This document shows positions 1 through 8,379 of a stretch of 64,000 nt of DNA, piece after piece (positions within the stretch are counted from its first letter, which is position 1; each line of letters begins with the position of its first letter). Position numbers and translations under genes: made by a program. Below the pieces are notes generated by a model. It worked only from the letters and a program-made list of their open reading frames with translations. It searched no databases and was not told where the DNA came from. Source of the stretch: Escherichia coli (GTDB taxonomy: Bacteria; Pseudomonadota; Gammaproteobacteria; Enterobacterales; Enterobacteriaceae); assembly GCF_030013205.1 (NCBI RefSeq), contig NZ_CP122648.1; one strand, given 5' to 3'.

Positions 1-447
1 CTGAACACTTTCAATTTCGTTATCATTTGAAATAGGAGTAATACAACCATTTATTATGGTATAACCAACGCCATGCTTTTTAAAGATGGAATTGAGATGC
101 TTCGATAGATTAATATATGAATTAGTTCTCTCAATGATGAACTCAATTAAATCATATACCAAATACCATGCTTCCCCATATATATAATCTCGGATAGCAG
201 TCAGCAACGTCTTATCACTTTTGTATCCACTTTCATAACGAGGAATATTATCCGCAGGTTGATTTAGATAATATATCCACACAGACTGCGCACATTTTGT
301 TGCTGTAGCAGTTTGACGATTGTTAGTCCAAAGGAAAAGATATAAGCAATTCCACAATGCCATGCGTGTATCAGAATTAAGATCATTCAGCTGGACATGC
401 TCTCTAACGTCAACATGACCATACCTCACAGAAAATGGCTTTATCAT
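1..447 (-). CDS. hypothetical protein, N-terminal ~149 codons only (gene runs off the window start)
   Basis: ATG at 445-447 on the minus strand opens a stop-free frame to position 1 (MIKPFSVRYGHVDVREHVQLNDLNSD...). Absent from the ORF track because it has no stop in the window. No family recognised. Confidence 0.35.
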   Translation of the reverse strand, partial: MIKPFSVRYGHVDVREHVQLNDLNSDTRMALWNCLYLFLWTNNRQTATATKCAQSVWIYYLNQPADNIPRYESGYKSDKTLLTAIRDYIYGEAWYLVYDLIEFIIERTNSYINLSKHLNSIFKKHGVGYTIINGCITPISNDNEIESVQ

Positions 448-977: not shown

Positions 978-1005
978 ACTTGGTGCCGAAGGCCGGACTC
1001 GAACC
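978..1005. repeat. 28-bp direct repeat of the leuX 3' end (island att site, distal copy)
   Basis: acttggtgccgaaggccggactcgaacc is identical to 8292-8319, which covers the 3' end of tRNA-Leu. Classic att duplication of a tRNA-integrated element. Confidence 0.85.
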
Positions 1006-1484
1006 TAAGTCTCTATAACCTGCTGTAATCACGTTCCTGTTAGCTGTTAAGAGAGCAATCGTAGGACCTTTTTGTTCTAGGGGCTACATATTAAGTTTGA
1101 TCCGCTGGACGGAATCAAACCGAGTGTTCGTGGCGGCATAAAACATCAACGTGCCATACCTGCCTTTTAATGTTTCTGGAGGTCTGCCGAGTCGGGAGGA
1201 AAGAACATTTGTCAGCTATGTGGACGTTGAATAAACGCCACTGCGTTCGGATTTTGAAACCAGTTAGACCCCGGCAGACCTTGTTCAGAATAACTATTTA
1301 ACTCAATGTTATTTATATGAATTAAGCCATTAAGAGCCAAAGCGAAACGCCACCGTAACGCACCCGCATTTTGCTGTTTTATTCACTCTTATAGAAACAA
1401 AGGGCTGATGAAACATAAGACTATCAGCATCTAATGAATACTGTTCATCCATACAGCATAAAAATTCATAAACTTACACTTGAG

Positions 1485-1949
1485 CTACTTTCTCAGTTTG
1501 TCCCACCGAACCGCTGATACGATACCCCAGTTGCCGCTAGGATTAGGCCTACGCCATTTTGCTGTCTCCATGCTACGAAGATACTCAAGAGCTTCAGCAA
1601 ACGTGCCAAAACGCTTCTGAGCCGCTTTATCACCTACGCCAAACGAACCATCACGGGTGCTCGCCAAACCGGGGTGAAAACAGGAACCATCGGCTGCGTA
1701 TGGAACCAACAGTTCCGAGTCGTTATCTTCAGATGGGCCAGGCGCTAACAACTGCCACGGCTCAACGCTCAGAGCGTTAGCCAGCACCTCAATCGCATCC
1801 AGAGACGCATTAGAGCCACCACGTTCAATTCTGCTCATATAACTACGTGCAAACCCGCACCGATCGGCAAAGGCCTCTTGGCTCAATCCGGTGGCAATGC
1901 GCAGTTCTTTTACCCGCTCGCCAAACTGTATTCTCAGGGATTTTTTCAT
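1485..1949 (-). CDS. XRE-family (Cro/C1-type) HTH transcriptional regulator with ~90-aa C-terminal domain of unknown function
   Basis: HTH_XRE motif IQFGERVKELRIATGLSQEAFADRCGFARSYMSRIERGGSNASLDAIEVLANAL. Start placed at internal MKKSL; the ORF track extends to 2042 but the extension precedes the HTH and looks spurious. Confidence 0.7.
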   Translation of the reverse strand: MKKSLRIQFGERVKELRIATGLSQEAFADRCGFARSYMSRIERGGSNASLDAIEVLANALSVEPWQLLAPGPSEDNDSELLVPYAADGSCFHPGLASTRDGSFGVGDKAAQKRFGTFAEALEYLRSMETAKWRRPNPSGNWGIVSAVRWDKLRK

Positions 1950-2199
1950 GCACTGAATGTGCAATTTTGACCACTGTAAGGCCACGCTCCATATGAGATA
2001 TTTTGAATCCAATCTCACTTCAGCGAGCTTAGTCACTAGCATTCATCGGCTGTATCATGACAATCCTTTTTGATTCAAAACAAACACCAATGGTGACATT
2101 TAAAACCCAACAAGTATGATGATCATCATCGGTTGGGCGTCACCAGCGTTCGCTATCAGGCGCGATGTGGTTTGGAAAGTGAGGGAATCATGACGGGAG

Positions 2200-2684
2200 C
2201 AGACTTTTTATTACCGATTGCAGCGGGAGCCGCGATTAGCTGGGCCAGTTATAGTGTAGTTGCCCATGCTGTATCAAAGCAGCACATCAGCACGCTACGC
2301 GCAACTGTATGGGGTGCTCTGGGCACTCTCTCATTGGTGCTGGGCGTATGCGCCTTTTCTGCTGTAGGTGCTGAGCATCAGACAGCACGAAAAGATATCG
2401 TATGTGCAGATGACAACCCGGAATGCTATGCGAAAACGCACCATAACCCGGTCAGGGAGTGCAAAAAGGTAATGGATGAGAAAGCGAAGTTTCGCCATGT
2501 GTGGCAAGAAAGCGAAGCGCCTGTATTTAATACTTATCTCTGGCACGATGAGAACGCGAAGATTATTCAGGCATTTGGGCAACAAGCTAAGGTAGTTAAC
2601 AGCCTGGGGATGCTAGCTCCGCTTCAATACTTTTGTGTTTTCAACGCAAAAACAGGAGAAGTCATTGCGGCCTCTTTCGAATAA
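2200..2684 (+). CDS. hypothetical membrane protein: two N-terminal TM helices plus Cys-containing soluble domain
   Basis: Start at MTGADF (ATG 2200) preceded by GAGGGAA RBS. Hydrophobic helices LLPIAAGAAISWASYSVVAHAV and VWGALGTLSLVLGVCAFSAVGA. No family recognised. Confidence 0.55.
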
Positions 2685-2744
2685 AAATGTGAGGGAATTC
2701 ACCCTAACATCAAAAATAAACTTATGTAATGACCTCGCATTTAA

Positions 2745-3590
2745 TTATTCATTTAAAGATTCAAGAAATGTCCAGCCTTTATGAGTAACATAATACATTT
2801 GTCCTTTTGCCCCTCTTTCAATCACAAAATCAAAGGATAACAGTTCGTTAAGTGCGCCCTCCCAACGGGCTACCTCTCTAGCCGAACTTCCACCAAAGGA
2901 TTGATTTCCCGCTTGAATATCCGTGCCACCTAAATGCCTTATCACATAAATTGTTCCGCTATCATCGACACATGCTAATTTCAGCAAACTGAGTGCATCG
3001 GCGGACAAATTACTTTCTGGCAAAGATTGACTTGTATTCGCATCAGGAGAATTGTTAATGGTAGATATAAGAGAAGACAAATAAGGGCTACTAGAAATAA
3101 TTATCGAAAGTTGCCTACGGACTTTTTCTTTGAAATCAGATAAGTCATTAAAAGACTCTATCAATCCCTTTTGCATGCACTCAGTTTTGAACAATTTAAG
3201 AGACTCATATTGTTCTCTATCAAGGCTTTCAGGGGCAACAGGCTTTGAGGAAAAGTAAATCATTGCCGGTTTTCCCGCATTCAAATGACGGTGGATTTCT
3301 TCGACTGTTCCGCTGGCCTCGTTCCCAGTCGGTGAGCCTAGACGAGTCCAAAACACACCGATTAATAAATCACAATCTACTAATAATCTTTGATTAATCA
3401 ACTCCTGAGGCCTAACTCCTAATTCGGGTGATGTATGAGTTTCCCATCCAATTGGTGTCAACATTACTTTTGAACGAGCTGAATTTATATCATTCCACTC
3501 ATGGATCATTTCACGAATGACTTGTCTCTCTTCAGCGACATCACCAGGAGAAGCAATCATTACAGGGATAACAGTTGCTGTGTAAGCCAT
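2745..3590 (-). CDS. hypothetical protein with DUF4062-like (TIR/flavodoxin-like) N-terminal domain and unknown C-terminal domain
   Basis: 281-aa ORF; N-terminal motif VIPVMIASPGDVAEERQVIREMI resembles the DUF4062 signature (hydrophobic strand-S-x-D-x-EER) from memory. GGAGAG RBS 7 nt upstream; start is 14 bp downstream of the recombinase stop. Confidence 0.5.
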   Translation of the reverse strand: MAYTATVIPVMIASPGDVAEERQVIREMIHEWNDINSARSKVMLTPIGWETHTSPELGVRPQELINQRLLVDCDLLIGVFWTRLGSPTGNEASGTVEEIHRHLNAGKPAMIYFSSKPVAPESLDREQYESLKLFKTECMQKGLIESFNDLSDFKEKVRRQLSIIISSSPYLSSLISTINNSPDANTSQSLPESNLSADALSLLKLACVDDSGTIYVIRHLGGTDIQAGNQSFGGSSAREVARWEGALNELLSFDFVIERGAKGQMYYVTHKGWTFLESLNE

Positions 3591-3603
3591 AAACTCTCCA
3601 TAT

Positions 3604-4164
3604 TCAATCGGTAATAGCTGCTACAGTCGCTCTTGAAACGCCATATTGACGCGCTAACGCACTGATACTCAAACCGCTATTCTTTTTCTCTAAAATCTCT
3701 CTACGGGCTTCTGACGCGATTTTAGGAGGTCTGCCCAATTTCTTACCTTCGGCTTTTGCTCGTGATAGTCCCGCCTGAGTGCGCTCAATCAGCAGATCAC
3801 GCTCCATCTCCGCAACCGCGGCGAGCATAGATAATAGCAACTTCCCAGCGGCAGAAGTGAGATCTGTGTTACCAAGCTGGTGGACAAGAACCTTGATATT
3901 ACGGTCAGCCAGCGCCCTTACCGTTTGCAAGACGTCAATCGCATCACGCCCCAGACGATCAAGCTTCGCTACCACCAACGTTTCACCATCGCGGATTTTA
4001 TTGAGCATTTCAGAAAATGCTTTACGTTGCATTGCCGGAACCTTCCCGCTAACAACATCGGCAAACCAGTAATCAATTTGCCACCCAGCCTGCCCAAGCT
4101 CCAGCCGTTGGTTCTCAGTATCCTGCTGCGATGTCGAAACACGTCCGTAGCCAAAAGTTGCCAT
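3604..4164 (-). CDS. small serine recombinase (resolvase/DNA invertase family)
   Basis: MATFGYGRVSTSQQD catalytic-Ser N-terminus, ...LDRLGRD..., C-terminal HTH (LSISALARQYGVSRATV). Start at internal Met; the track extension to 4233 precedes the conserved N-terminus. Confidence 0.85.
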   Translation of the reverse strand: MATFGYGRVSTSQQDTENQRLELGQAGWQIDYWFADVVSGKVPAMQRKAFSEMLNKIRDGETLVVAKLDRLGRDAIDVLQTVRALADRNIKVLVHQLGNTDLTSAAGKLLLSMLAAVAEMERDLLIERTQAGLSRAKAEGKKLGRPPKIASEARREILEKKNSGLSISALARQYGVSRATVAAITD

Positions 4165-4355
4165 TGTTATCTCCCCATCTGACCCCTGCCAGAAAACGAG
4201 GCCAACATTAGGATGGCCTGCCAGAAAAGCCAAGGCTATTTTTCCAACAGTGTGAAAGCGTGCGATTGGGAGGTGCCAGAAAACGGTCGTTTGTTGGCGC
4301 TTAAAACGGATAAAGACATGTTAGGCTGAAACCATCACTTCATAAGGACAACCGA

Positions 4356-4823
4356 AATGATTAAAGACGCGATTTTTCACCGTGCGGTCAATATCGCTAC
4401 TCGTTATCACGAGTCTGGGACGAATCAAAACCATATGCCCTTTTCATAGGGCTAAACCCTTCATACGCCGATGCTGAGAAGGATGATCGCACCTTGAGCC
4501 GCTGCATATCGTTTGCCAAAAGCAGGGGCTACGGTGGCGTATACATGGCCAACCTGTTCGCATTCGTTCACACCCAGCGACATGAAATGATGAAAGCGTC
4601 TGATCCCATTGGCAAAGATAACGATAGCCACTTGATACGTCTTGTTAGCGGTGCCGGACTGGTTGTCGCCGCATGGGGAAATGAAGGAAGACACCTCAAA
4701 CGCTCAACGACCGTCCGACAGCTATTGCCAGAGAGCACAATGTGCTTCGTCTTAAACGCTACAGGTGAGCCGAAGCACCCTTTGTATATGAAAAACGACA
4801 GTGTTCTCATACCTTTAGGTTAA
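4356..4823 (+). pseudogene. DUF1643-like gene, apparently frameshifted
   Basis: ATG near 4356 gives MIKDAIFHRAVNIATRYHESGTNQNH... then a stop. A different frame carries the conserved core ...FIGLNPSYADAEKDDRTLSRCISFAKSRGYGGVYMANLFA... through to the stop at 4823. One frame change around 4410-4440 is needed to join them; exact position uncertain by a few nt. Confidence 0.5.
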
Positions 4824-5828
4824 CATCGATAACTGCGTTCAGAATATGAACGCAGCCATATGATATATATGACTTTTCTTTAAAATGATGGTGTGCTAGC
4901 TTCTCTCCTGACACCTACCTCATGCGGTAAACCGGTCCGGGTAGGTGGAGATCACCGCTGTTTAGCGGAAGACGTCAGGATGGGAACTCTGCGTAACGTT
5001 GATTGTGGTAGGTAGGGCGCGCAAGCGTTTGATGCAGCCAAGCAGAGGGTGAAAGTAGCTATCGGCGGATTCTTGAGTAGCTTCTTTTGCGCATAATGCA
5101 TCTTTCAAGAAAGGTCGTCACACCACGAGGAAGACTTGATCTTCATCTGGCAAGGGGAACCGAGCAACCTACAGGCTATCTTCTCAGATGGCCTTATGGT
5201 TGATATGTCCGGCTTCCCCCCCGAGGAAGGGTTTACATCTTAAAGAACAAGTTATGTTTTAACATTTTTAACAATTACACTTCTCTGCTGTTTGGTGTCT
5301 TATGGCGTTGCCGTCAAAAGTAAACCTGCCGTTTTTACCTCTCCTGCGTAACAACCAAATACGAACCAGAAGCTGCTAACGTTCAACGTGTTCGCGGTGT
5401 AAATGCAGCCAGATAAGTTGGGAGCGAAAAAGTGGATGCCCTAGGTTTGGAAGCGCCCCTCTCAGGCATAGCGTCCGAAAATTTCCACGGCGGCAGGCTT
5501 ATCCTTATAGAGCCAAACAGACTCAAAAGTTAAGAAGCGCGGTAAAGCTTAAAGCTCGCCCAGATTTCTCATTGATTGCTCGAACTCCGCTACGCTTGTT
5601 TCAACTGGCTTCGCCAGTCACTCTATGAGAGCGCCGCGAATTCTGCACCATGATTTCGACTACCTTCTTTAAAACACTCGCCAGAGAGCCTTACAGCGCG
5701 TTTGAACCGCATATCGCAGCTTTTGCTTACGGATGACTGTCTGATTAGCAGTAGCTTCATGGCCCAGTCCGGTTTACTTTATTGCTATCAACAAGGGAGC
5801 CGTCCAGAGGCGACGCGGAGATAATGCT

Positions 5829-6161
5829 TTGAGAACCGTCGAGATACTGCAATACACCTTACGCAAAGGCAGCGGTGCCGCTTTTCACGCCATTATGCAG
5901 GAAATCAGTGTTCCCCTACACCAACGCCACGGGATCGATGTTGTTTCGTTTGGTAACTCTCTGCATGACCCGGACTGCTATTACCTGATTCGCGCCTTTG
6001 TCAGCCCTAAAAGCATGACTACGGTTCTCGACGCTTTTTACGCAAGCGATGACTGGCGCAGCGGCCCGCGCGAAGACATCATTGGCAACATAGAGGCCAG
6101 CATTAAAACAGTGATAAATCTACCATCAGAAAGCGTAGAAGGGCTGCGGGTGCAATCGTAG
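5829..6161 (+). CDS. NIPSNAP/dimeric alpha-beta-barrel-like small protein
   Basis: 110 aa, TTG start with GGAG 8 nt upstream. Sequence pattern (EILQYTLRKG...YYLIRAF...DDW) resembles the NIPSNAP family from memory. Confidence 0.5.
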   Translation: MRTVEILQYTLRKGSGAAFHAIMQEISVPLHQRHGIDVVSFGNSLHDPDCYYLIRAFVSPKSMTTVLDAFYASDDWRSGPREDIIGNIEASIKTVINLPSESVEGLRVQS

Positions 6162-6293
6162 GTCATCAAGTTTCACCAAACGTGTTTTGAGCGTCTCCAA
6201 ATTCAGCACTATGAAATCCACCACCCTTAATAAAAAACGCGCCAGGAAGCGTCCCAGCGCATTCAAGCATCACTCAACTGAATAGTAACTGAT

Positions 6294-8246
6294 TCAACCT
6301 GTTTGTTTGCCACGCTTTCTTCGCAACGCATCTCTGACAGCATCCAGCCCGTCAGGAATGTTGAATTCCGCTATATCAGGTAACGAAAAATCAATTTTCT
6401 CCACGACTTCAATCATATGAATTGGTTTGAGGTCTTTGCTATATCGCACTTCCGTTTCAGTTTCGCCGCGCACATGCCCAAGTAGCTGCGCTCGTAATTC
6501 TGAGCTAACGCCCTTCTCCTTGAGCAAAGTCGAAACTGAGTGGCGAAAAGAATGGAAAGATTTGCTTCTGTTCCTCTCGAGTTTCAACCGCCCCGCAAGC
6601 AACGATTCATTGAACCATGCGGAAACTGGCCTACCATAGCCTTTTGTTTTATGTGGTTTAAGCTCCGGGAAGAGACGGGTATACCCTGCATCTTTTAAGG
6701 CGTTCACGTAGTCGATGAAACCGAGACTAATCAGCTTTGAATGGAGCGGAATCTTGCGGCGAGCATTAGCATTTTTGAGTTTCTTTCCGCTTTCATTATC
6801 GCTTTCAAGGTTCAAATAATAGACGCCGTCGTCTGCCAGAACATCACTCAGCAGTAACTGAGCGATTTCATTAACTCGCGCCCCCGTCATCAAGCCCAGC
6901 AAAGGTGCCCAATAGTTAAACGGGCAATATTGATGGAATCGCCCTTGCGCATTGCGTTCAACAGTTCCAGCCTCAAACCACGGTAACGAAAAAATCGCTT
7001 TAATTTCATGCGGTTCAAATATGTCAGTGTGATCCTGATCTCGCTCATCTTTATCATCGGATGGAAAAAAGTTTTCGCATGGCGATTTCAGTAGCTTACC
7101 GTCAGCAACAGCCCACTTCATTGCACCATAAATGCCGTTGATATACTTCCTAACGGATTCCTCAGTCATCAATTTATCGCCGCATTCTGCCGCTTTGGCG
7201 ATTAACTGATCCAGCGTTTTCACTCCATATTTAGCTTTGACTAAATTACGGTTTGCTGGGATCGTGCGCAGTTTGCTCTCATAAGCCCGGAGGAAATCGC
7301 GATCAAAATCTTCCAACTGAATGTCACCCATCGCTTCGATCATAAAGCTGAAATAGTTACGGATATCACTTATAGCCGACTCCGATACCTTGCCCTTGCG
7401 CCGATGCTTTAGATATTCAGAGCATAACCACGACAGATTCTTAGTGTAATACTTTCGATTAACATACTCGTTATCGATAGTAGGGGCAGGAGCGGCAAGA
7501 GGCACGGTAGGATGAACACTAGCGACTGGAGGCGTGGTCTTAGCCAGCCAATCAAGCCTTAGGCTTTCTGCATGGACTTTATTGATCAAAAGCGTATCGG
7601 GTTTAATTACCGGCCAACCGGAGGTGAAAAACCAACCGCCTTTAGCGTCGCTTCCGGCAGTTTTGAACACCGAAGCTTCTGAATAACCGTCGCTAATAAT
7701 GTTACGTAAATGTGCTGGTTGCGCAGTGAGTTGCAGATAGCCTTTAGCAACCCCCTCGATACCCTTCTCTTCGCCATAATTAAGAACGTAACTGCCATCA
7801 AGCGGGTCTAGCTCAGCCTCAGAGAGCGCTGCAACATAAAAGCCAGCCTGCCCCGTCGCCAGCCAGAATACGGGCAGATTACGGTTCATCACCGCCTGTA
7901 TTAATTGCGCAACAGGCAACTCAACTGACTGAGCAAAGTTAGAAAGCGAGATCATACCCTCACCAGCAAGCAGCGGGGCGCAGTCACTTAAAGTTCGATA
8001 ATCCAATTGTTCATACTCTTGTAAGGTCTGATACCAGACCGCCAACAGGAGCGCGGACTTCTGCTTTGCTTCATGAAGATCGTGAGTGCCTGTTGAAGTG
8101 TGAATCTCACACTGTCCTGCGTATCGACGAAAACGTTGGGGAATGCTAATGCGGACAACATAAATGCCGCTGGTTCGACGATAGAGTTTATATCGCTGAG
8201 ACATCGCCTCGTATACCCTTTTGTAAGAGGGGCTACGCGATTTCAA
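6294..8246 (-). CDS. tyrosine-type site-specific integrase (650 aa, unusually long)
   Basis: C-terminal catalytic region HSFRHSVSTLL...LLGH...; lambda-like arm-binding N-terminus (YKLYRRTSGIYVVRISIP); directly adjacent to tRNA-Leu. A ~250-aa central region is of unclear homology. Confidence 0.85.
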   Translation of the reverse strand: MKSRSPSYKRVYEAMSQRYKLYRRTSGIYVVRISIPQRFRRYAGQCEIHTSTGTHDLHEAKQKSALLLAVWYQTLQEYEQLDYRTLSDCAPLLAGEGMISLSNFAQSVELPVAQLIQAVMNRNLPVFWLATGQAGFYVAALSEAELDPLDGSYVLNYGEEKGIEGVAKGYLQLTAQPAHLRNIISDGYSEASVFKTAGSDAKGGWFFTSGWPVIKPDTLLINKVHAESLRLDWLAKTTPPVASVHPTVPLAAPAPTIDNEYVNRKYYTKNLSWLCSEYLKHRRKGKVSESAISDIRNYFSFMIEAMGDIQLEDFDRDFLRAYESKLRTIPANRNLVKAKYGVKTLDQLIAKAAECGDKLMTEESVRKYINGIYGAMKWAVADGKLLKSPCENFFPSDDKDERDQDHTDIFEPHEIKAIFSLPWFEAGTVERNAQGRFHQYCPFNYWAPLLGLMTGARVNEIAQLLLSDVLADDGVYYLNLESDNESGKKLKNANARRKIPLHSKLISLGFIDYVNALKDAGYTRLFPELKPHKTKGYGRPVSAWFNESLLAGRLKLERNRSKSFHSFRHSVSTLLKEKGVSSELRAQLLGHVRGETETEVRYSKDLKPIHMIEVVEKIDFSLPDIAEFNIPDGLDAVRDALRRKRGKQTG

Positions 8247-8294
8247 GCAAAATTATGGATTAAATTGTTTTAAAACAACGACTTAGATAAGACT

Positions 8295-8379
8295 TGGTGC
8301 CGAAGGCCGGACTCGAACCGGCACGTATTTCTACGGTTGATTTTGAATCAACTGCGTCTACCGATTTCGCCACTTCGGC
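8295..8379 (-). tRNA. leuX: tRNA-Leu (CAA), leuX
   Basis: Reverse complement reads GCCGAAGTGGCGAAATCGGTAGACGCAGTTGATTCAAAATCAACCGTAGAAATACGTGCCGGTTCGAGTCCGGCCTTCGGCACCA (85 nt, CAA anticodon, CCA end). Confidence 0.95.

Follow-up and report, generated by a model that had tools for sequence, protein, structure and literature searches.

A DUF4062 gene in the variable slot of a small leuX island of Escherichia coli, a probable single-gene abortive-infection effector

Introduction

Two preprints of 2026 describe a kind of anti-phage defence in which one gene acts alone: proteins that join a DUF4062 domain to an AUX region protect Escherichia coli and Staphylococcus aureus, with depletion of nicotinamide adenine dinucleotide (NAD+) and abortive infection. 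A gene of this family in E. coli is compared with them here. It lies at 2745-3590, on the minus strand, of a 64,000-nucleotide stretch of chromosome (NCBI RefSeq assembly GCF_030013205.1, contig NZ_CP122648.1; the whole of this stretch is referred to as the window), inside a small island at the tRNA gene leuX. An earlier note on the same DNA had grouped it with three neighbours, which code for an XRE-type helix-turn-helix (HTH) regulator, a membrane protein with two transmembrane (TM) segments and a small serine recombinase, as a candidate four-gene defence or phase-variable module. The analysis presented below makes it probable that the DUF4062 gene is, instead of a part of a four-gene system, a single self-contained defence gene that a small mobile island carries in its cargo slot, with a predicted product that is an abortive-infection NADase of the Swarozyc/Evangelion class.

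Osinski et al. (10.64898/2026.05.01.722283) identify DUF4062 as a TIR-like NADase domain, only about half of which is spanned by the Pfam model. E. coli cells that carry one gene for a DUF4062 + AUX protein, taken from Klebsiella, E. coli or another species, are protected against BASEL phages: infection is abortive and NAD+ is depleted. Protection depends on the catalytic Glu as well as on the AUX domain. The AUX domain of the Swarozyc protein KpSwz (Klebsiella pneumoniae WP_202404386) folds as an HTH/winged domain and attaches to the phage portal. At rest the enzyme is oligomeric and autoinhibited, and its helical stalks intertwine. In KpSwz and in human TEP1 the products of NAD(P)+ hydrolysis are ADP-ribose and nicotinamide. 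According to the same authors, identical DUF4062 proteins turn up in different genera beside different defence systems. Evangelion, described by Ibarra-Chavez et al. (10.64898/2026.06.25.731849), joins a DUF4062 core that is conserved to an AUX region that has diversified and is indispensable; its lineages Eva01-04 are distinct from Swarozyc. Activation of Eva01 lowers NAD+, and in E. coli Eva03 acts against Dhillonvirus phages. The catalytic Glu of these proteins follows the third strand (E97 in KpSwz, E1008 in TEP1, E87 in Eva01).

The DUF4062 protein

The 281-residue protein of the window (WP_000331917) has more than 2,000 full-length homologues or clusters (~280-290 amino acids, 53-66% identical over the whole length), and many of the homologues that are 55-59% identical to it carry PF13271 matches. 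A Foldseek search with the product of 2745-3590, which the earlier note had suggested, found DUF4062 annotated in 49 of the top 50 AFDB50 matches, mostly with full-length alignment; the structural neighbours come from Proteobacteria, Bacteroidota, Planctomycetota, Acidobacteriota and Firmicutes. The AlphaFold2 (AF2) model, with a mean predicted local distance difference test score (pLDDT) of 80, has a five-stranded β/α core at residues 6-147 (the domain being ~1-147), a helical stalk of two long helices (150-179), a disordered linker (180-196) and an AUX region (197-281). The latter is made up of helix 197-207, three strands, helix 237-252, a β-hairpin at 256-268 and helix 270-280. Residues 50-65 of the model have low pLDDT. 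As modelled, then, a single polypeptide provides core, stalk and AUX, as it does in Swarozyc and Evangelion, and would presumably function by itself.

Two adjacent glutamates, E97 and E98, do not vary among 38 sequences. They belong to the motif S93-G94-T95-x-E-E, where helix 94-104 begins, and are likely to be the catalytic residues. W49 is also invariant and E50 is conserved (the W-E motif). These two motifs, W49-E50 and S-G-T-x-E97-E98, parallel W51-E52 and the catalytic Glu of Eva01, and the catalytic Glu of KpSwz. (The earlier note had pointed to a conserved 'D-x-EER' motif. D17, V18 and R22 are indeed invariant; the motif in fact has the form D-x-x-E-E-R, as D17-V-A-E-E-R22, and the residues that are likely to be catalytic are E97/E98 instead.)

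Alleles of the gene that occupy the same slot of related islands are 83-93% identical in the core, 31-78% in the stalk and 39-72% in AUX; in nucleotide alignments the gene can be followed through its 5′ half only. Stalk and AUX have diverged faster than the core, and this matches the published pattern of a conserved core (effector) and a diversifying AUX (sensor). The alleles are a ready series for mapping the sensor domain against the phage that is recognised.

The ATG of the DUF4062 gene follows the TGA of the recombinase gene after a 13-nt spacer that contains GGAG; the gene has its own ribosome-binding site (RBS) and the frames do not overlap. The pair appears from this arrangement to be operonic; the description 'translationally coupled' in the earlier note says too much.

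The mechanism proposed for the protein is drawn by analogy from KpSwz (Swarozyc) and Eva01 (Evangelion), both of them experimentally characterised. The DUF4062 protein would be made constitutively, probably by read-through from the recombinase promoter and with use of its own RBS, and would at rest be an autoinhibited oligomer. Its AUX domain would sense a phage-made protein or a replication intermediate, the TIR-like domains would then be repositioned, Glu97/Glu98 would hydrolyse NAD+, and the infected cell would die ahead of phage release (abortive infection). What the sequences and the model show is the autonomy of the gene, the slot structure, the fold, the invariant residues and the faster divergence of stalk and AUX; chemistry as an NADase, trigger, phenotype and structure of the transcript are inferred.

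Relation to described systems

Swarozyc proteins have, like the window protein, a TIR-like DUF4062 core with the Glu, a stalk and a compact AUX in a length of ~280-295 residues. They too are carried by mobile elements, have other defence systems for neighbours and recur as identical proteins across genera. The AUX of KpSwz is of the HTH/winged kind; the model of the window AUX is helix, β-hairpin, helix, with a weak match to HTH_45 (E = 0.22). The catalytic Glu of KpSwz appears to be ~15 residues nearer the true N-terminus (judging from the 15-C/16-C constructs), which would leave the window protein with a longer BB-loop region (50-65). The trigger of KpSwz is the phage portal. A search of the PDB gave no sequence match to the DUF4062 protein.

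Evangelion shares with the window protein the DUF4062 core with a fast-diversifying AUX, the W-E motif (W49-E50 in the window, W51-E52 in Eva01) and a conserved acidic catalytic motif. It is a single-gene abortive defence with loss of NAD+, carried by mobile, including integrative, elements. Eva01 differs in being a Gram-positive plasmid gene with a shorter AUX. Eva03 could be related to the window protein, which could even be identical or sister to Eva03 or to a tested E. coli protein (UPI0002A39D72); the latter identifier was not seen in sequence-cluster look-ups.

The PADLOC model PDC-S60 represents the same core subfamily: residues 1-160 of the window protein match profile positions 5-169 (E = 6e-27). 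The profile has 906 positions, of which the remaining ~740 are absent from the window protein, and the match is not full length. PADLOC, a check named in the earlier note, also gave a Control_protein match for the HTH protein and none for the membrane protein. Literature searches yielded nothing specific on PDC-S60, DUF6538 or leuX defence hotspots.

Several points weigh against the assignment to this class of NADases. The Pfam DUF4062 match is weak (E = 3e-4, residues 10-99). Of the KpSwz residue set D16, R18, D71, E97, W176, W238 and Y239, no more than three of the seven are matched in any close relative of the window protein, which by this comparison appears to belong to a lineage other than KpSwz; the aromatic F11 of Eva01 has Met as its counterpart at position 11 (with Ile at position 12). 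Family membership is also no guarantee of phenotype, Eva02 having given no protection in tests (10.64898/2026.06.25.731849), and no experiment on the window protein's own lineage was identified in the literature. In Enterobacteriaceae the DUF4062 gene is nearly always downstream of the recombinase gene, and its expression may depend on the backbone. Finally, the fold is equally close to nucleoside 2-deoxyribosyltransferases (NDTs), and S-G-T-x-x-E is similar to the motif of the NDT nucleophile as well; the protein may act on a substrate other than NAD+. The 281-residue protein could be an NDT-type nucleoside/nucleotide N-glycosidase or transferase, for deoxynucleotides or modified bases (and might still be defensive). 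We regard this as unlikely, given that hydrolysis of NAD(P)+ to ADP-ribose and nicotinamide is what has been found for every DUF4062 domain with biochemistry (KpSwz, human TEP1), and that Eva01 activation lowers NAD+. The earlier note's 'no assigned function' for the DUF4062 protein has been superseded by the two preprints. What stands of its defence proposal is that the island very probably carries, in the TIR-like protein, an effector of abortive infection against phages; what does not stand is the joining of four genes in one module.

A constant backbone and a changing slot

The window was compared with twelve related loci, from E. coli (at leuX, tRNA-Gly and tRNA-Thr), an IncHI1B plasmid, Klebsiella/Enterobacter, Pantoea, Edwardsiella and Serratia (designations such as L006 are used below where one locus must be told from another). 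The parts of the window that the comparison concerns are:

1485..1949, minus strand: XRE regulator (HTH gene), 154 aa (RefSeq; Pfam HTH_31)
1950..2189: divergent regulatory region (promoter scan and alignment of nine variants)
2190..2684, plus strand: 2-TM membrane gene, 164 aa (no Pfam family; phrog_20749)
2688..3607: variable cargo slot (nucleotide homology breakpoints)
2745..3590, minus strand: DUF4062 cargo gene, 281 aa (RefSeq; Pfam DUF4062 weak; AF2 model)
3604..4164, minus strand: small serine recombinase, 186 aa (RefSeq; Pfam Resolvase and HTH_7)

All four open reading frames are real, and for the HTH, 281-residue and recombinase genes the coordinates of the earlier note are exactly those of RefSeq at the identical ML35 locus; its membrane gene start, 2200, is out of frame, the ATG being at 2190.

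Across Enterobacterales the order is constant: HTH gene, membrane gene, slot, recombinase gene, a second variable region (with DUF1643 or other genes) and a DUF6538-type integrase gene. Identity to the window proteins is 90-100% for the HTH protein, 83-92% for the recombinase, 86-99% for the DUF1643 protein and 68-91% for the membrane protein. The DUF4062 protein is 63-81% identical, or absent, or replaced. Nucleotide homology stops at 2687, the stop of the membrane gene, and restarts at 3608-3613, the stop of the recombinase gene; the slot is therefore exactly the DUF4062 gene.

The contents of the slot vary with the host. In Serratia it holds a DUF4062 gene (87% identical) and in Klebsiella/Enterobacter a DUF4062 allele (63% identical). 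In Pantoea it holds a complete type II restriction-modification (R-M) pair (restriction endonuclease, 3e-43; methyltransferase, 8e-63), and in Edwardsiella a gene of 190 codons without known family. In E. coli L002, L004, L006 and L018-20 it is empty, with 147-400 bp of filler. The leuX island of O157:H7 (L003) has two orphan genes in place of the membrane gene and the slot, at 3551-4303(+) (250 aa) and 4455-5771(+) (438 aa). No Pfam or PADLOC match to this pair was found, permissive thresholds included, and its position makes it candidate defence cargo. Fixed flanks around a changing slot are thus a handle for finding more defence genes, of which the O157:H7 pair is an example.

Turnover of this cargo is most simply explained by homologous recombination between the conserved flanks, because the slot edges share no recurrent motif. 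In L011-L014 one and the same DUF4062 protein stands beside BREX, an OLD/UvrD pair, a type I R-M system or GmrSD, which is what Osinski et al. note of identical DUF4062 proteins across genera.

A census covered 5,426 complete E. coli genomes: 913 have the HTH gene, 754 the recombinase gene, 570 the membrane gene and 437 the DUF4062 gene. Plasmids account for some matches of the HTH, recombinase and membrane genes but for no DUF4062 match. Homologues of the DUF4062 protein at 55% identity occur in Kangiella (between housekeeping genes) and in Iodobacter (in a prophage/defence region), in both with no recombinase, HTH or membrane neighbours. A survey of the gene neighbourhood had been proposed in the earlier note. 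It found no co-conservation of all four genes across genomes, independent of carrier: the components are separable.

The persistence of the backbone with another or an empty slot, the census, the phyletic ranges and the stand-alone homologues therefore speak against functional linkage of the four genes. What the sequences show is one cargo gene (DUF4062) within a conserved backbone, and adjacency in a mobile element, operonic adjacency included, does not amount to a multi-gene system. The gene is carried by ~7-8% of complete E. coli genomes, among them those of laboratory and probiotic strains such as ML35, ATCC 25922 ('Seattle 1946') and Nissle 1917, and is a common, naturally chromosomal representative, in a tractable host, of a defence family described only in 2026. 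The DUF4062 + AUX kind of defence is already known, and a four-gene, recombinase-regulated system is unsupported; the newest aspects are the island family with its defence slot and the orphan cargo of O157:H7.

This arrangement can be compared with the known defence hotspots of P4-like satellites, P2 prophages, integrative and conjugative elements and tRNA-linked E. coli islands. The likeness lies in a conserved backbone and a sharply bounded slot with unrelated defence contents (here DUF4062 and type II R-M, with PDC-S06 in the second variable region); the difference is that a backbone of XRE regulator, 2-TM protein, serine recombinase and DUF6538 integrase was not found described. It is possible, if on balance doubtful, that the backbone with its DUF6538-type integrase defines an undescribed family of compact (~7 kb) tRNA-integrating Enterobacterales islands, the chief task of which is to carry and exchange defence cargo in a dedicated slot for expression, directly downstream of the recombinase gene. 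Were this true, the regulator and membrane pair would have a second function, such as exclusion or upkeep of the element; the recombinase would serve either for cargo loading or for element resolution, and the O157:H7 pair would be a new defence system.

Three observations concern related loci. The R-M pair of Pantoea alhagi (L015 7606-9216) lies beside the HTH protein with its DNA-binding domain like that of R-M controller (C) proteins, and the backbone regulator might have been co-opted as C protein in this variant. At L006 8186-10795(+), in an island at tRNA-Thr, the second variable region (between recombinase and integrase genes) codes for an 869-aa AAA ATPase that matches PADLOC PDC-S06 over its full length (1.7e-260). 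At L018 4812-6245(-), to the left of a related E. coli island and beside its HTH end, a 477-aa DUF8370 protein matches PADLOC PDC-M36A (7e-50), which is another case of defence genes flanking such islands.

The recombinase and the alternative readings

The recombinase combines a Pfam Resolvase domain (1e-36) with a C-terminal HTH_7, and its catalytic residues Y6, R8 and S10 and a DRLGR motif are intact. Its PDB matches are to γδ/Tn3 resolvase (1e-25) and Gin (6e-23), its PHROG match is to DNA invertase (1e-55) and there is a weak Mpi-family match. Assignment as resolvase or invertase is ambiguous, the PDB matches being slightly closer to resolvases than to Gin. At 186 aa, with the Resolvase domain and HTH_7, it is like other small serine recombinases (γδ/Tn3, Gin/Hin/Pin); it differs in that no res-like or hix/gix-like site was identified in the island. 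Possible roles are resolution of multimers or co-integrates, or expression of the downstream slot.

Were the four genes nevertheless one defence system, the XRE protein would regulate, the 2-TM protein would be effector or sensor, the DUF4062 protein would process nucleotides and the recombinase would control expression. The recurrence in Enterobacteriaceae, in several contexts, of the whole block (DUF1643, recombinase, DUF4062, membrane and HTH genes) with a 63%-identical DUF4062 allele would be accounted for in this way, as would the operonic placing of the DUF4062 gene with the recombinase gene and the resemblance of the HTH domain to defence controllers (C proteins, CapH). Yet the HTH, membrane and recombinase genes remain when the slot is empty or otherwise filled, gene frequencies are about two-fold apart and phyletic ranges very different, distant DUF4062 homologues do without all three partners, and the published DUF4062 + AUX genes act alone. 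The comparative data appear largely to refute the four-gene reading, and we consider it very improbable. Control by DNA inversion, which the earlier note had raised, has fared still worse. It would have the recombinase invert a segment and thereby switch the DUF4062 and membrane genes, and for this there are an intact, invertase-like recombinase and a pair of inverted repeats, 2209-2229 and 3596-3616, that brackets exactly these two genes next to the recombinase gene. No other inverted repeat is well placed. The exact core of this one, 12 nt, is formed by the last four codons of the recombinase gene and codons 7-10 of the membrane gene; both arms are coding. Inverted 12-mers are not enriched (6 observed; mean 3, maximum 9 in shuffles), none of the 525 genomes that carry these sequences (in the search of the 5,426 E. 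coli genomes) has the predicted inverted junction, full-length matches to the locus are all collinear, and the recombinase is, as said, slightly closer to resolvases. An inversion-controlled locus was rejected on the chance-level, coding repeat and the 525 genomes lacking the inverted junction, and we find it barely credible.

A further role for the recombinase would be that of cargo loader, with site-specific capture or exchange of cassettes just past the end of its own gene, much as in an integron. The right edge of the slot is within a few bases of the recombinase stop in every variant, the cargo lies directly downstream of the recombinase gene and in the same orientation in the slot variants examined, and the slot contents are mutually unrelated, all as a loader would have it. 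Against this, comparison of the slot edges of eight variants found no shared repeat or recurrent motif, each having its own terminator hairpin and unrelated sequence, and on this count site-specific cassette capture was rejected: no site is common to the edges of variants with different cargo. The conserved flanks (membrane protein, 68-91%; recombinase, 83-92%) permit ordinary homologous recombination, and the left breakpoint in O157:H7 is elsewhere, at 2009. Site-specific loading is accordingly a rather improbable account, and a single self-contained defence gene within an otherwise constant backbone remains the reading that we prefer.

The regulator, the membrane protein and the region between them

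Besides DUF4062 (weak), Pfam bears out the XRE-HTH and serine recombinase calls of the earlier note. The N-terminal HTH of the XRE protein matches HTH_31/HTH_3 (E = 5e-14) and is closest to R-M C proteins (PDB C.AhdI, 1.5e-11; PADLOC Control_protein, 1e-18). Its C-terminal ~80 residues had been called a domain of unknown kind, and searches of Pfam, the PDB and PHROGs gave no match to them. The protein as a whole was rejected as an R-M C protein: it has 154 residues against ~80, with an additional domain, and its presence does not depend on the cargo. R-M cargo stands beside the XRE gene only in the Pantoea variant.

In the membrane protein, two N-terminal TM helices are followed by a β-rich C-terminal domain that contains Cys. 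No family in Pfam, NCBIfam or PADLOC was matched, the sole PHROG match is phrog_20749 (1e-102, annotated as of unknown function), and the AF2 model is poor (pLDDT 64). The family comprises 144 clusters, in Enterobacterales only. Its gene is always found beside the HTH gene and is kept in the absence of DUF4062 in L002, L004, L006 and L018-20; the two genes are likely to be a backbone module.

The ~60 nt upstream of the HTH start (1950-2010) are nearly invariant across genera, including where the membrane gene is replaced, and are more conserved than the coding sequence on their flanks. This conservation suggests a candidate operator/promoter or other cis-acting island site. A predicted σ70-like promoter (-35 GTGACA, -10 TATGAT; 2093-2120, scan score 10/12) faces the membrane gene and is conserved in the alignment of nine variants. 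A 14-nt palindrome at 2118-2131 was rejected as operator, not being strictly conserved across the family.

The island at leuX

The remaining features of the island are:

978..1005: distal attachment (att) site, exact repeat of 8292-8319; left island edge
4357..4823, plus strand: DUF1643 gene, frameshifted (pseudogene) (RefSeq annotation of the identical ML35 locus)
5829..6161, plus strand: NIPSNAP-family gene, island passenger (RefSeq annotation; 86-89% identical in related islands)
6294..8204, minus strand: tyrosine integrase, 636 aa, with a DUF6538-type N-terminus; adjoins leuX (RefSeq; PHROG integrase, 3e-32)
8292..8379, minus strand: leuX tRNA-Leu(CAA) and proximal att repeat 8292-8319 (ARAGORN; Rfam)

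The location in an integrase-bearing island at leuX, as the earlier note had it, is confirmed: the window is E. coli chromosome with tRNA-Leu(CAA) at 8295-8379(-) (ARAGORN; Rfam tRNA, 59 bits), next to the integrase gene, and the Rfam scan found this tRNA as the sole non-coding RNA. An exact 28-nt direct repeat joins 978-1005 (distal) to 8292-8319 (proximal, the 3′ end of leuX), and in related loci, the left flanks of which are quite different, homology to the window starts exactly at 980-981. Because of these repeats and this onset of homology, the island is a discrete 7.3-kb element bounded by the repeats, 980-8319. Homologues of the integrase have both PF20172 and PF00589, and no phage or conjugation genes were seen in the ~7-kb island backbone.

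The DUF1643 gene is divergent from the recombinase gene and is intact in O157:H7, CX21 and Klebsiella; it belongs to the second, semi-variable region of the island. Some relatives have a NUDIX gene instead.

A third, degenerate copy of the att repeat (68%) lies at 1094-1121, ~90 nt inside the left end of the island. Related islands being found at tRNA-Gly and tRNA-Thr, it may be the remnant of an attachment site from another tRNA.

DNA to the left of 978 is an older accretion at leuX, with a partial AbiJ-NTD4 gene, insertion sequence fragments and the fec operon. The 3′ part of the AbiJ-NTD4 gene occupies 1-447(-) of the window and the gene runs on leftwards (L001 19623-20447); its product, WP_000594911.1, matches PADLOC PDC-S32 (4e-37).

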